From a phage, in the sequence record PZ386966.1: 64,000 nt of DNA; one strand, 5' to 3'. The number at the start of each line of letters is the position of its first letter. Position 1 is the first letter of the stretch. The position numbers and the translations under genes are program-made. Positions 7,213 through 58,717 of the stretch are shown here, piece by piece. A model generated the notes under the pieces. The model did not search any database. It saw nothing but the letters and a program-made list of their open reading frames with translations, and was not told the DNA's origin.

Positions 7213-8008
7213 TCAATACACTCGCAAGGTGTACCAGTTCTCTTATGAACTTCTCCGCATTTCTACGGAGTGTCGGACTATATCACGTAGTAGTAATACT
7301 ACCGTTGCACTTGGGAATGGTCATTAGCTTACCAACCTACTCTACTCAGTTCATACATTAAGTATGCTTTTCGATAGTCTCTGAACGTTTCTCTGTTAGG
7401 AATCTCTATAATCATGTTATTTACTCAGGTAGTCAATTGCCCTTTGCATATTATCAACGCTATCTGCAAGTAACCCTAAAGCCCTATTGCAATTGTGGCA
7501 CAACATACCTCTTACTTTTCCGGTTTTGTGGTCATGGTCAACGACAAGTTTAGCTTTATGCCGTGAACTATTCATGATAAAACCTTCACCGCCACAAATT
7601 TGACATTTGTAATCACAGTTGCGAAGTAGGTTTTCAACCTCTTCTCTTTCTAAACCATATGTTCTCAGGTAGTAATTCTTAACTCTACCTTTCTCTCCGC
7701 AATGTGAAGAACAATAAACTTGCCTTGCTGTTCTAGGCATGAACACCTTCTCACAGCTAGGACATTTCTTAGTAAGAACCCTATGTTCTGCTCTTCTGTC
7801 AAATTTTAATACGCAACTTCTGCACCGTTTTTGATTGTATTGGTATGGTTTAAACTCTGCACCACACTCAGTACACAATCTTTCTTTGTAACCTGCCATT
7901 GTCTCTCTCCTTTGCTTTAGGAGTCCTAACAGAGACTTCGCTGCTGATTACCATATCTTTACAGACTTAGGCTTCCAGCAATTCACAACGTTTTACATGC
8001 GCCACTGA
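7207..8008 (-). mobile_element. intervening sequence in DNA polymerase gene (putative group I intron) carrying an HNH endonuclease ORF
   Basis: Polymerase motif B is split across the flanks (..KNGIYA / LFGAGDEK); endonuclease ORF with its own strong RBS lies between; boundaries approximate. Confidence 0.5.
7417..7899 (-). CDS. HNH homing endonuclease
   Basis: HNH core ..VVDHDHKTGKVRGMLCHNCNRALG; AAGGAGAG RBS upstream; not in frame with polymerase N-terminal segment. Confidence 0.8.
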   Translation of the reverse strand: MAGYKERLCTECGAEFKPYQYNQKRCRSCVLKFDRRAEHRVLTKKCPSCEKVFMPRTARQVYCSSHCGEKGRVKNYYLRTYGLEREEVENLLRNCDYKCQICGGEGFIMNSSRHKAKLVVDHDHKTGKVRGMLCHNCNRALGLLADSVDNMQRAIDYLSK

Positions 8009-10150
8009 CGCATAAATGCCATTTTTGGCTTTCTTACGACCTTTGCTAATTTCTTGAAGAAGATTTGTATCCTGAGTGGCTCGACAGGTCAAGATGTCTT
8101 CCTCTTTATTAAGGCTGAAGTAAATACTATTTAAAGTATGCGCATCAGTTCCTGAGTACACCACGTACAAGTCATTTTCCGAATCATAATGCAAATACTT
8201 GTCAATCTCTGGGTTTAGATACTGGTCAAAATGTTTGCAATAGTATCTGCCATCATCTTGTTTGACAAACTCAACCTCTTCTTTACCCTCTGTTACTGCT
8301 TTAGTGAACTCTTTATCACCCATAAAGTTACACAGCAGTACAAGTTGCGCGCTATTCATATCTGCTGAAACAATATTAGTTCCCTCTTCACAAGTCCACA
8401 CCTCCCTCATAGGTGCTCCATAGACAGCAGCACCAGACGGTACGTTTACAATACCATATTGTGTCATACGTCCAGTTGAAGTACCAAACACCATTGCACC
8501 AGCACTAAGGCGACCATCAGGACGAATCTGGTTCAACCATCCTTTTTCATCATCCTTTGAGTTCTCAATAGTTCTGCGTCGGTGCATCAAAGTGTAGTAC
8601 TTAGCAATCTTCTGTCCAAGCTCACCTTCAATCGTATCATAAGATGATTCAGTAAGTTTTGGTGAAGTACGAATTAAGCAAGGTTCAAGTAAGTCTGTGT
8701 ACTTCTTAACAGACCAGTTATGCTCAATGTACTGGACACCTTCATGTTCAACATAGCTCAAGCCACAACGCTCAACCATCTCATCCCATTTAGGATGCTT
8801 GGTAATCATCTTTTTGTTGTCTTTGAAACGACAAACCTTAACAGGACGACCATCAGAGTCTTTCTTATAGTTCCAGTCATCAGGAATCCAACCAACTGAT
8901 TTCAAGTAGTCCTTCACAACAGCCACCTGAGTCATTCGAGAAACTTCAAACTCAATTGGTGTATATGGTGCATCAATCAAACCTGTGTAGCGACTTGACT
9001 CAAGTCCAAAGTGGTTAACAACATGACTGTTATAGTACTTCACAGTTTTAACTGTTTTTACTGGCTTCCAGTCTTTGCATTTCTTACCAATCTTTGCATT
9101 CAACTCGTTGCAAATTGCACGAGCATCCTTCATTGCTACAAAACCTTCCTTGTACTCTTCGCCAGTTACAGTGTTGGTTGGTGTATAGCAATTCCGCTTT
9201 TCAATGTTAAAAATCTTTGTAGTTGGCTTACCAAATGGCTTGATTTCATATGTCTGCATCTCACCGTTACGTACCTGCTGACGATACTTTGTCTTAGGGT
9301 ACTTGGTAATTCTTTTCAGTCCATCTGCATGACCAAACGCTTCAACATACTCATTCCAAGCTTTTGCAAACTCTTCTCCAGTGACTTTACCTTTGGTCTT
9401 AATAGTTGGTGGAAGGTGTGGTTCAACTTCTGAAGCAAGCTCATTAGTCAACTTGTCAAGTTCCTTTACATGGAACTCCATAAGCTCTTTATCAGCTTTC
9501 CAACCATTGATAGCCTGTTGACTCATCCAGAAAGATGTCTCTTTAGCTCGCATATAGGTTTCATAAGTGTCTATGCCACACTTCTTTAACTTGAGATATT
9601 CATTATCCAGTGCGCGTTTAGTTTTGGCGTTAATACGGATATCTTCTACAACACGAGTGAAGATTTCTGCATTCCACACACCCCAATGTTCAATCTCTGG
9701 TTTACGGACACCAACACGAGCACCCCATGCTGCCAAGCCATGAGCACCTTTATAGCCTTTTGGAGTTGGTCTATCCATCCACTGAACACGAGACTGGATA
9801 AGAGAGTCCTGAAAGAAATTACTCCACGGCTTACATTTTGGATTATCGAAGTTCCACAAATCAGGTGCAATATGATTGAAAACCCACCAGTCATACCCCA
9901 GACCATTATGGATACAAAGCCGTTTTGCCTTTAACGCAAACTCAATACCTTCACGTAAACCACCCTTAATGTACTTGGTATACTTGTGACCGAGGATAGG
10001 CTCATCTGTAAAGACCCATACAGGTGGCTCCTCATCGTCAGATTTATAGTCTGCGAAAGCCATGACGTGGACTTTAGTGAACTCAAGGAGTAAACCATCA
10101 GTTTCTGTATCACCAACTAAGTGTAAGTTTTTAAAATCTACGTTTTCCAT
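7970..10150 (-). CDS. DNA polymerase, family A (T7-like), N-terminal segment with 3'-5' exonuclease domain
   Basis: VGDTETDG exo motif; ends ..RKKAKNGIYA (T7 RDNAKTFIYG) then reads into the insertion to stop at 7967-7969; start at ATG 10148-10150 with GGGAG RBS. Confidence 0.8.
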
Positions 10151-10208
10151 TTGTACTCCCTCTAATTCGTTAACCCCATACATTACTGCAAAAAATTATA
10201 AAAAGCAA

Positions 10209-10232
10209 GTTGACAATGTACTTGACAAGGTG
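10209..10232 (+). promoter_or_regulatory. conserved promoter-like motif GTTGACAATGTACTTGACAAGGTG at divergent junction
   Basis: Two TTGACA hexamers 8 bp apart; near-identical copy at 56082-56105. Confidence 0.45.
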
Positions 10233-10406
10233 TTAATCTTTGCGAAGTGGGTTTTTACTTAAAAGGTTACTTAACAGTTTAACTATACAGACACTTTAAA
10301 ACTCTTAAAAGATTATTTAATAGCTTTTAAAAAGCTTTAAAGTATAACGTATAGAATACGTTAAGATAAAAGATTAAAACTTAATAGTTACTTAAAAGAG
10401 GCTTAC

Positions 10407-10829
10407 ATGCAGAAAATGTTTGTTCACCCAGACATAGCTGACTTTGTTAGGGCTTTGCAGAAGTTGGAAGAACTTGACATTGCTGCTCAACGGGAATATG
10501 CTCACCATCACAGGAGAATGGTTGATATACAACATGAAATAGAGTTGTCTGAAAACTACGAAGATGACTTAAAATGCTCTGTATTTGAGCATATGAAAGA
10601 TGTTGCTACAGCTAGACGTAAAGCTAAAGATACGGTTGCTTTACTAGATTCTCTTAAAAAGAGGTTGCAAAGTGGTACAGACCTGTGTAGTCTAGCGTCA
10701 CTGATTAACGATGTTGAAACTTCTTGGGATAGACATTACTATCCACGTTCTGAAAAGACGCTTGACTTTTCTTCATCTGAAAACTTAAAATGTTCTAGAA
10801 AGAAACTTAACCAACTGAGAGAGAAATAA
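10407..10829 (+). CDS. hypothetical protein
   Basis: 140 aa ORF, first gene of + block. Confidence 0.45.
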   Translation: MQKMFVHPDIADFVRALQKLEELDIAAQREYAHHHRRMVDIQHEIELSENYEDDLKCSVFEHMKDVATARRKAKDTVALLDSLKKRLQSGTDLCSLASLINDVETSWDRHYYPRSEKTLDFSSSENLKCSRKKLNQLREK

Positions 10830-10830
10830 T

Positions 10831-58101: not shown

Positions 58102-58119
58102 AAAGTTTTAAAAAGGGTA

Positions 58120-58148
58120 TTGACAATGTGTTTAATACCCTTTAATAT
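58120..58148 (+). promoter_or_regulatory. sigma70-like promoter upstream of tRNA array
   Basis: TTGACA-17-TAATAT. Confidence 0.5.
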
Positions 58149-58266
58149 GTTCTACATAGAAACGAAATGAGAGCTTTTCTAAGATACTGAAAAATATTTT
58201 AAAAAAGTTCTTGACAACCACTAAAAAATAATGTTAAAGTGGTTACATAGAGTTTGAAAAGTTTAT

Positions 58267-58343
58267 CTCTGTTTAGCTCAGCTTGGTAGAGCGTTCCGTT
58301 TGGGGCGGTAAGGCCGGAGGTTCAAGTCCTCCAACAGAGACCA
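58267..58343 (+). tRNA. tRNA, anticodon probably UGG (Pro)
   Basis: 7-bp acceptor stem CTCTGTT/AACAGAG, D-arm AGCTCAGCTTGGTAGAGC, T-arm GGAGGTTCAAGTCCTCC, CCA encoded. Confidence 0.5.
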
Positions 58344-58360
58344 AATTTAAAGGGGTTACT

Positions 58361-58717
58361 ATGAGATTTTTAAAAGAATGTCCAGTTCATGGCTTAACTG
58401 AACATAGCATTCATAAGAATGGTAACGCCGGTAATAGAGTAAATTGTCTAAAATGTTGTGCATTAAGGACAAAACTTAGAGAGAATGCCAATAGAGAGAA
58501 AGCATATAAGCTTTATGGCGATAGTTGCAAAATTTGTGGCTATAATAAATGCAAAAATGCTTTAGAATGGCATCACCTTAACCCAAATGAAAAAGAGAAT
58601 ACACCATCAAAACTTATGGGTGCATCTTGGGAGAAGGTTAAAAAAGAACTTGATAAATGTGTTTTGCTATGTGCTAATTGCCACAGAGAGGTTCATAGTG
58701 GAATTACAATGATTTAA
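58361..58717 (+). CDS. HNH homing endonuclease within tRNA array
   Basis: ORF trimmed to Met after tRNA; ..LEWHHLNP..LLCANCHREVH HNH motifs. Confidence 0.65.
   Translation: MRFLKECPVHGLTEHSIHKNGNAGNRVNCLKCCALRTKLRENANREKAYKLYGDSCKICGYNKCKNALEWHHLNPNEKENTPSKLMGASWEKVKKELDKCVLLCANCHREVHSGITMI

Follow-up and report, generated by a model that had tools for sequence, protein, structure and literature searches.

A nuclease-bearing group I intron within the gene for DNA polymerase and two further putative homing endonuclease genes in a Felixounavirus genome segment

Nuclease-bearing introns in genes for DNA polymerase from T7-like phages were reportedly described by Bonocora and Shub (2004 and 2009), and Edgell et al. 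(2010) are said to have reviewed the td, nrdB and nrdD introns of phage T4 (I-TevI-III) together with the free-standing Seg and Mob endonucleases. Known phage polymerase introns belong to class IA2 (PMC3428280). The DHHRN nuclease motif was defined for F-CphI and T4 endonuclease VII, and the open reading frame (ORF) that the T7-like Yersinia phage Berlin carries in its polymerase intron was counted among the intron-encoded members (PMC6083498). The Felix O1 paper gave an uninterrupted polymerase of 906 amino acids (aa) and stated that introns are absent (PMC3185647). The genome note on phage Mushroom reported two polymerase genes, separated by an unexplained 383-bp gap without a nuclease ORF, and called the interruption of nrdD a free-standing endonuclease (PMC4392139). 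Our literature search found no paper linking the term "group I intron" with Felixounavirus; one paper mentioned "two introns" in this genus, in phage SPJ41, among non-coding RNAs and without comment (PMC9951933). Here we describe a 64,000-nt stretch of phage DNA (record PZ386966.1; the whole stretch is hereafter called the window) in which the DNA polymerase gene is interrupted by a group I intron with its own nuclease ORF. We conclude with good confidence that the window carries three selfish homing elements (this intron and two free-standing HNH genes), which would spread by cut-and-repair, and two resident genes with nuclease folds.

By nucleotide identity, which was 93-95% to Felixounavirus genomes, and by gene order, the window was assigned to a Felixounavirus genome (Felix O1-like myovirus). 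A 13-kb query from the nuclease region matched 276 phage records, nearly all of them Felixounavirus at 90-95% nucleotide identity (Felix O1-like myoviruses of Salmonella, Escherichia and Shigella), and the closest record was Salmonella phage Si3 (95.3%). The gene order was that of Felix O1 (thymidylate synthase, ligase, DNA polymerase, primase-helicase, exonuclease, ribonucleotide reductases, nadV, rII and a tRNA array), and the window held 24-25 tRNA genes. Presence and absence were compared across approximately 280-300 related GenBank genomes and approximately 30 IMG/VR contigs. All five ORFs that an earlier note on this DNA had taken for nuclease genes (7417-7899, 17030-17554, 17551-18051, 58361-58717 and, with reserve, 28418-28933) were present at the coordinates given there. 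Searches with hidden Markov models confirmed the nuclease identity of the ORFs at 7417, 17030, 17551 and 58361, whereas the ORF at 28418 failed Pfam and kept a weak profile link.

The family A DNA polymerase was encoded on the minus strand by exon 1 (8008..10183), colinear with the uninterrupted Felix O1 gp96 and with 22 intron-less contigs, and by exon 2 (6649..7205). Exon 1 ended at T8008, in the codon after ...KNGIYA, and the called ORF (7967-10183) extended 14 codons into the intron; exon 2 started at T7205 (..LLFGAGDEK..), and the gap between the two polymerase ORFs was 763 bp. When the exon ends were projected onto 28 IMG/VR contigs and Felix O1, the intervening length was exactly 0 at the junction in 23 intron-less genomes, 268 nt in BPS17W1 and REP10, 311 nt in Mushroom and 780-805 nt in five ORF-bearing genomes. 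The zero-length junction therefore defined the intron as 8007..7206 on the minus strand, 802 nt long. The spliced polymerase comprised 2176 + 557 nt (910 aa); its frame gave ...KNGIYALLFGAGDEK..., and the joined exons read ...ISKGRKKAKNGIYA|LLFGAGDEKFAKTIK, both the same as in the intron-less proteins. The intron interrupts the coding sequence of motif B (O-helix) of the family A polymerase, for which we take the T7 polymerase counterpart to be ...AKTFIYGFLYGAGDEK.

The elements of an IA2-like group I ribozyme were placed along the minus strand. P1 consisted of 6 bp between the exon end (8013-8008, AUGCGU) and the internal guide (8002-7997, GCGCAU) and contained the U8008.G8002 pair at the splice site; the exon ended in U and the intron in its terminal G (G7206). 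P3 (7992-7984/7311-7303), P4 (7980-7975/7947-7942), P8 (7302-7287) and P9 (7270-7253) were assigned, and the arms of P6a (7936-7924/7401-7390) closed a loop holding the nuclease ORF and its Shine-Dalgarno sequence. A 62-nt insert resembling P7.1-7.2 (7374-7313) followed the 5′ strand of P7 and preceded the 3′ strand of P3, a position that suggests subgroup IA2, the intron copies being too alike for covariation. At the gathering threshold, an Rfam scan of the whole window matched tRNAs alone. A permissive scan gave a partial group I match at 7848-7984 (minus strand, 28.1 bits, E = 6e-5) and a second partial match of 15.9 bits; the intron of the window fell below threshold because the 483-nt ORF in P6a splits the match. 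The orthologous ORF-less introns scored 62.3 bits (Mushroom) and 61.7 bits (REP10) against RF00028, whose curated threshold is 50 bits, and were 98.4% and 97.0% identical, respectively, to the ribozyme parts of the window. The Mushroom intron was the intron of the window minus exactly the ORF and its ribosome-binding site. The intron would self-splice from the pre-mRNA by means of the P1 U.G pair and the terminal G, giving a single 910-aa polymerase.

The ORF in the P6a loop (7417..7899, minus strand) encoded a 160-aa homing endonuclease of the Endonuclease VII/DHHRN type with a beta-beta-alpha-metal fold; the nuclease that the earlier note had described as free-standing in the polymerase gene was thus intron-encoded. 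It matched Pfam Endonuclease_7 (PF02945) with 70.9 bits (cut-off, 23.6; E = 8.6e-20) and the PHROG endonuclease VII family at 3e-42, and was preceded by the Shine-Dalgarno sequence AGGAGAG (7911-7905). The DHHRN motif was complete (C99-x2-C102, D121 H122 D123 H124, R130, C134-x2-C137 and N138), so that the catalytic motif is intact, and matches in PDB over this motif were Hpy99I and T4 endonuclease VII (the latter at E = 0.003). The protein was 50% identical to the polymerase-intron ORF of Berlin. Two further homologues (56-57% identical), on podophage-sized or shorter metagenomic contigs, were each flanked by two DNA_pol_A fragments, and these contigs showed group I signals below threshold. 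The EC6-type ORF was 79% identical to that of the window at the protein level, with a nonsynonymous divergence (dN) of 0.14 and saturated synonymous divergence (dS, by NG86), so that no numerical dN/dS was obtained between the two ORF lineages; this combination indicates that the intron ORF is under purifying selection. The search with the nuclease also led to metagenomic contig SRR7986268_3011, from an unrelated 51-kb phage, in which a group I intron (675-941, 88.5 bits) overlapped the 3′ end of a primase/helicase (DnaB_C) gene and the sequence just downstream, and a second intron carried an Endonuclease VII ORF.

The polymerase introns of the Berlin type resembled this intron in their family A polymerase host gene, in the interruption of the same motif B, in an ORF located in P6a and belonging to the same nuclease family, in a putative P7.1/P7.2-like insert and in an identical 15-nt element, AGTTCATAAGAGAAC, after P9 (window 7252-7238). 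However, the insertion site of the window (IYA^LLFG) lay 11 nt downstream of that used in Berlin and the two metagenomic relatives (AKTF^IYG), the ribozyme cores were only approximately 40% (5′ part) and approximately 32% (3′ part) identical, with little shared beyond the core motifs, and the host is an Ounavirinae myovirus rather than an Autographiviridae podovirus. A nuclease of the T7-like polymerase-intron family within an intron displaced by 11 nt in motif B could reflect cross-family transfer followed by retargeting. The F-CphI/DHHRN family shared the C-terminal CX2C...DHDH...R...CX2C-N motif and membership of a phage-borne clade of site-specific nucleases, but F-CphI is free-standing and acts with a separate ORF-less psbA intron, whereas the ORF of the window lies inside its intron (PMC6083498). 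In T4, as here, intron-encoded and free-standing GIY-YIG and HNH genes stand beside genes of replication and nucleotide metabolism; flanking markers are co-converted in T4 and presumably here, and both T4 and relatives of the window have an nrdD intron. The nucleases and target genes of T4 are nevertheless different ones, and the SegE-type protein of the window consists of the catalytic domain only and is fixed rather than polymorphic. Felix O1, of the same genus, has the post-exonuclease HNH-AP2 gene as ORF106, and its ORF44, ORF45 and ORF47 belong to the same family as the tRNA-array HNH gene of the window (PMC3185647); its polymerase is uninterrupted, and its occupied sites differ from those of the window except for the post-exonuclease site.

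The polymerase gap was matched by 136 records. At least 80% of it, including the ORF, was held by 41 records, approximately 55 Felixounavirus records contained pieces of the intron only, and in 34, all from T7-like Yersinia phages, the match covered 95 nt of the ORF; the remaining approximately 180 related records were intron-less. Approximately 97 of 276-299 matching Felix O1-like GenBank records, about one in three, had the intron, and its ORF was present in approximately 14% of relatives. Among the 28 IMG/VR contigs, five had the intron with the ORF, one had an ORF-less intron and 22 were intron-less. GCGT|TATTG, a sequence that pairs with the guide GCGCAU, stood at the junction of all intron-bearing alleles, and synonymous sequences (GCAC|TGCTG or GCCC|TGTTA) that are unable to form P1 were present in most intron-less ones. 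The identity of intron-less relatives to the window dropped from approximately 91-94% to 76-82% over 8000-8400 and 6600-7200, that is, across the 400 nt at the end of exon 1 and the whole of exon 2, and intron-bearing relatives remained at 89-93%. Co-conversion tracts were also sought directly in pairwise mismatch maps of the exon flanks, and the resulting complex mosaic was only suggestive. In a mixed infection, the intron endonuclease would cut intron-less polymerase alleles near the insertion site, and repair from the intron-bearing genome would copy in both the intron and the exon sequence next to it.

Empty sites, ORF-less introns (268 and 311 nt), intact ORFs and a broken ORF were all observed among these genomes, and the intact ORF occurred in two lineages approximately 25% diverged at the nucleotide level. 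The broken ORF was that of Escherichia phage VpaE1, in which the intron measured 780 nt, approximately 22 nt shorter than in the window, and the annotation splits the nuclease gene into a 101-aa hypothetical protein and an "endonuclease VII"; this copy looks like a decaying or disrupted homing endonuclease gene. As a tentative interpretation, the Felixounavirus polymerase intron may be a natural population that displays every stage of the life cycle of an intron and its homing endonuclease, and the ribozyme and the ORF may move as separate modules. When the window (7206-8007) was compared with EC6, REP10 and BPS17W1, the ribozyme core was 96-99% identical, the embedded ORF 75% and the flanking exons 76-78%. 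A conserved ribozyme beside a diverged ORF and diverged exons would point either to extreme constraint on the ribozyme or to separate histories of the ribozyme, the ORF and the exons.

The second element was a free-standing homing endonuclease gene with HNH_3 and AP2 domains on the plus strand (17054..17554; PHROG 99 at 4.6e-75). The ORF extended from 17030 to 17554, with ATG 17054 as the likely true start, and exceeded the Pfam cut-offs for HNH_3 (48.0 bits against 24.8) and AP2 (33.9 against 33.3). It followed the exonuclease gene (16030-17076) and preceded the GIY-YIG gene, with the start of which its stop codon overlapped (ATGA), and the insertion cassette (approximately 17041-17547) took the place of the final exonuclease codons. 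Of 29 sampled genomes, 13 had an occupied post-exonuclease site, nine with the lineage of the window and four with another lineage (only 54-56% protein identity). The other 16 genomes had an empty site with a precise junction, the exonuclease stop overlapping or abutting the GIY-YIG start. The gene was found in 64 of 299 GenBank records (approximately 21%), it was 95% identical at the amino acid level to Felix O1 ORF106, and paralogues (37-41% identical) occupied other sites in relatives. A dip in identity similar to that around the intron was observed at 16800-17000 and 17600-17800. The two commoner elements, the intron and the HNH-AP2 gene, fit homing because locally diverged flanks travel with the element.

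The third element was a free-standing zinc-HNH homing endonuclease gene in the tRNA array (58361..58717, plus strand, 118 aa), whose Pfam HNH match was marginal (PF01844, 23.0 bits against 21.4) and whose PHROG HNH match was strong (2255, 1.5e-29). Its ATG start was judged right, since the longer ORF from a TTG at 58283 begins within tRNA-Pro (58267-58343). The gene lay in a 375-bp insert in the spacer between tRNA-Pro and tRNA-Glu, which in relatives is 7 nt long (AATTAAT). It was 39% identical to the Felix O1 tRNA-array HNH of the ORF44 type and shared CxxC...HHL(D/N)P...CVLLCANCHRxVH with the tRNA-array HNH genes of that phage. The insert was absent from 28 of 28 IMG/VR contigs and present in only three GenBank phages (approximately 1%): nataliec (98.4% identity), Meda and DE7. 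The adjacent tRNA-Glu(UUC)-like gene (58719..58790, plus strand; Rfam tRNA, 55.4 bits), which ARAGORN did not call, was of a different allele type, linked to the HNH insert. Its 5′ 50 nt were unlike those of the Felix O1-type tRNA-Glu, and over an aligned region of 101 nt the identity to that type was only approximately 55-60%; it was 94-97% identical to genes of phiEa21-4-like and other Ounavirinae phages, and 99-100% identical only in the three HNH-bearing phages. The anticodon loop of this tRNA appears to be CCUUCAA, with C at the expected U33.

Both free-standing genes would spread by the same cut-and-repair route as the intron, with their own genome protected by differences in the target sequence. 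The zinc-HNH gene would arrive with a foreign, presumably uncut, tRNA-Glu allele; a nuclease directed at the resident tRNA-Glu region, together with a resistant donor allele, would be expected to leave such an allele swap.

The homing behaviour that the earlier note had proposed for all five ORFs was supported in these comparisons for three, namely the intron ORF, the HNH-AP2 gene and the tRNA-array HNH gene, at each of which precise presence/absence polymorphism was observed at the same locus in relatives. It was not supported for the GIY-YIG gene and the ORF at 28418-28933, because neither showed insertion polymorphism. The former (17551..18051, plus strand) encoded a 166-aa SegE-type GIY-YIG nuclease domain (Pfam SegE_GIY-YIG, 1.1e-26). 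In nearly all 299 records it followed the exonuclease gene, at the same place and with approximately 90% identity, without a patchy distribution among them, and it was recognisable even in Erwinia phages. The protein had no C-terminal DNA-binding module, a tail being present only in one distant 270-aa homologue, and a sequence search of PDB with it found nothing. Because it has no extra domain and a fixed position, it was classified as a GIY-YIG nuclease-fold gene and not as a homing endonuclease. The gene is usually labelled "NAD synthetase" or "hypothetical"; the former label, found in RefSeq Felix O1, Si3, many other records and PHROG 447, appears to be a propagated mis-annotation.

The gene at 28418..28933 (plus strand) is a conserved core gene, equivalent to Felix O1 ORF125, with a divergent HNH-like motif (FTLGH93H..GG..N107W..DN116Q). 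It had no nuclease match in Pfam, and its PHROG is one of unknown function. The family profile matched one genuine HNH protein (E = 3.2e-4), with H93, N107 and N116 aligned with the H..N..N of HNH, which weakly suggests an HNH relationship. At least 80% of the gene was held, at the same locus, by 241 of 286 records, without a mobile distribution among them. Comparison of the family with the NUMOD-type HNH of a relative gave an hhalign probability of 0.1%. Residues 12-56 (LSFEERQEFIDSHQYDPSNSNHMIL) resembled helices 1-2 of the staphylococcal protein A B-domain at E values of approximately 2-7 per repeat, and this resemblance was treated as chance; a short LxxEERxxFIxSxxxDPSxS motif underlay these matches, the only ones in the PDB profile search of the family. 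Of the two signs that the earlier note had set as refuting homing, the lack of insertion polymorphism was observed for both fixed genes, but catalytic-type residues were retained in them. They probably act for the benefit of the phage and not in homing. Host DNA breakdown or competitor exclusion, as carried out by T4's small GIY-YIG endonuclease II, is one possibility for their role.

Taken literally, the earlier note would make all the nucleases free-standing and the polymerase a pair of separately translated polypeptides that assemble, like the split ribonucleotide reductase of the T4-like phage Aeh1. Many matching GenBank records do list two "DNA polymerase" coding sequences, the two genes of the Mushroom note fit the same arrangement, and a TTG is present at 7203 in the ORF list. 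However, the gap is a recognisable group I intron with a P1 guide and canonical U and G at its boundaries, motif B is interrupted midway, in-frame joining of the exons matches uninterrupted polymerases exactly, and inspection of exon 2 found neither a Shine-Dalgarno sequence nor a plausible start codon for a separate second polypeptide. We therefore regard a two-chain polymerase as very improbable and rejected it. We also rejected, as marginally less credible still, the view that the Endonuclease VII-type ORF is a phage Holliday-junction resolvase like T4 gp49 rather than a homing enzyme: although the Pfam family is named for T4 endonuclease VII and that enzyme was matched in PDB, the ORF lies within an intron, is missing from approximately 86% of close relatives, as an essential resolvase would not be, and occurs in two pieces in the shortened intron of VpaE1. 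Its homologues are located in polymerase introns, and the catalytic domain lies at its C-terminus, an arrangement shared with the "endonuclease clade" (PMC6083498).

A less improbable alternative, still judged unlikely, is that the polymorphic nucleases are kept mainly for their benefit to the phage (exclusion of co-infecting relatives, defence or counter-defence), with patchiness produced by selection and ordinary recombination. The purifying selection on the intron ORF, the divergent HNH-AP2 lineages occupying the same sites and the complex mosaic of the flanks agree with this explanation, but the insertions have precise boundaries and lie in motif B, at a gene junction and in a tRNA spacer, all of them conserved targets; VpaE1 has a decayed copy, and flank divergence travels with the element. 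These are classical signatures of homing, and homing and phage benefit are not exclusive. Several points weigh against the conclusion that the window carries three homing elements, an intron-interrupted polymerase and two resident nuclease-fold genes. Splicing, cleavage and homing, like the roles of the fixed genes, are all inferred from sequence, the intron of the window is itself below the Rfam threshold, and the near-identity of the intron copies prevents covariation from testing the helices. The mosaic divergence of the exon flanks may come partly from ordinary recombination between lineages, and the HNH assignment of 28418-28933 rests on an E value of approximately 3e-4 and on sub-threshold matches.

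The nuclease load, which the earlier note had called high, proved ordinary for the genus. When 14 HNH-type proteins of the genus were searched against the sampled regions of relatives, equivalent regions held from one to approximately seven HNH-type genes per genome, and the three mobile nuclease genes of the window were mid-range. Published counts are six HNH genes in Felix O1 (PMC3185647), one in UAB_Phi87, and three and two in two other phages (PMC4837284, PMC8300805). Pfam and PHROG scans of the other variable or window-specific ORFs (21940, 26729, 27405, 31977, 41051-46022 and 49372) found no further nucleases. Sites that were empty in the window but occupied by HNH genes in relatives were those after polymerase exon 2, inside and after nrdD, and between prs and nadV, and relatives also had HNH genes at six other places in the tRNA array. 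A group I intron was present in the nrdD gene of ten related genomes, at the exact site corresponding to window position approximately 25038; the nrdD of the window (23841-25985) was uninterrupted. The intron occurred in an ORF-less form of 315 nt (RF00028, 55.1 and 53.6 bits) and in a 741-nt form with an HNH_3 ORF (examples: L042 18481-18778, L056 18916-19240 and L033 19010-19752).

Three other regions of the window were recorded. A 114-aa ORF after nadV (31977-32321; phrog_20372, function unknown) was a rare accessory gene, present in three of 29 sampled relatives, and had no match in a Pfam scan. In a 430-bp gap (3834 to 4266), sixteen relatives had an insert of 1.4-1.7 kb at approximately 3964-4013, which was absent from the window, Felix O1 and Si3; the insert included a conserved 200-aa ORF without a Pfam match. 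The region 46665-48355, 1.7 kb without an ORF of at least 60 aa, separated the plus-strand from the minus-strand gene block, and an equivalent gap exists in Felix O1. It contained 15 of the 44 TGTTAAG heptamers of the window, often 11 nt apart and changing orientation near 47540, and a perfect 27-nt direct repeat (46901-46927 and 47596-47622); GC skew switched from -0.3 to +0.4 across it, and Rfam gave no match. From these features, the region looks like an origin or a protein-binding array.

Both IA2-type introns with P6a nucleases in phage polymerase genes and free-standing HNH genes are already known kinds of element, and the main value of these results lies in annotation and phage engineering. 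The nrdD genes described as "split" in some records and in the literature most likely contain group I introns that are spliced out. Felix O1-like phages have been widely proposed for the biocontrol of Salmonella and E. coli, and homing elements mark the sites at which co-infecting phages exchange sequence, which affects phylogenies, the stability of cocktails and engineered constructs. With the polymerase intron described here, a known intron and nuclease family of T7-like podoviruses is also represented in a lineage of myoviruses, where its target site is a neighbouring one.

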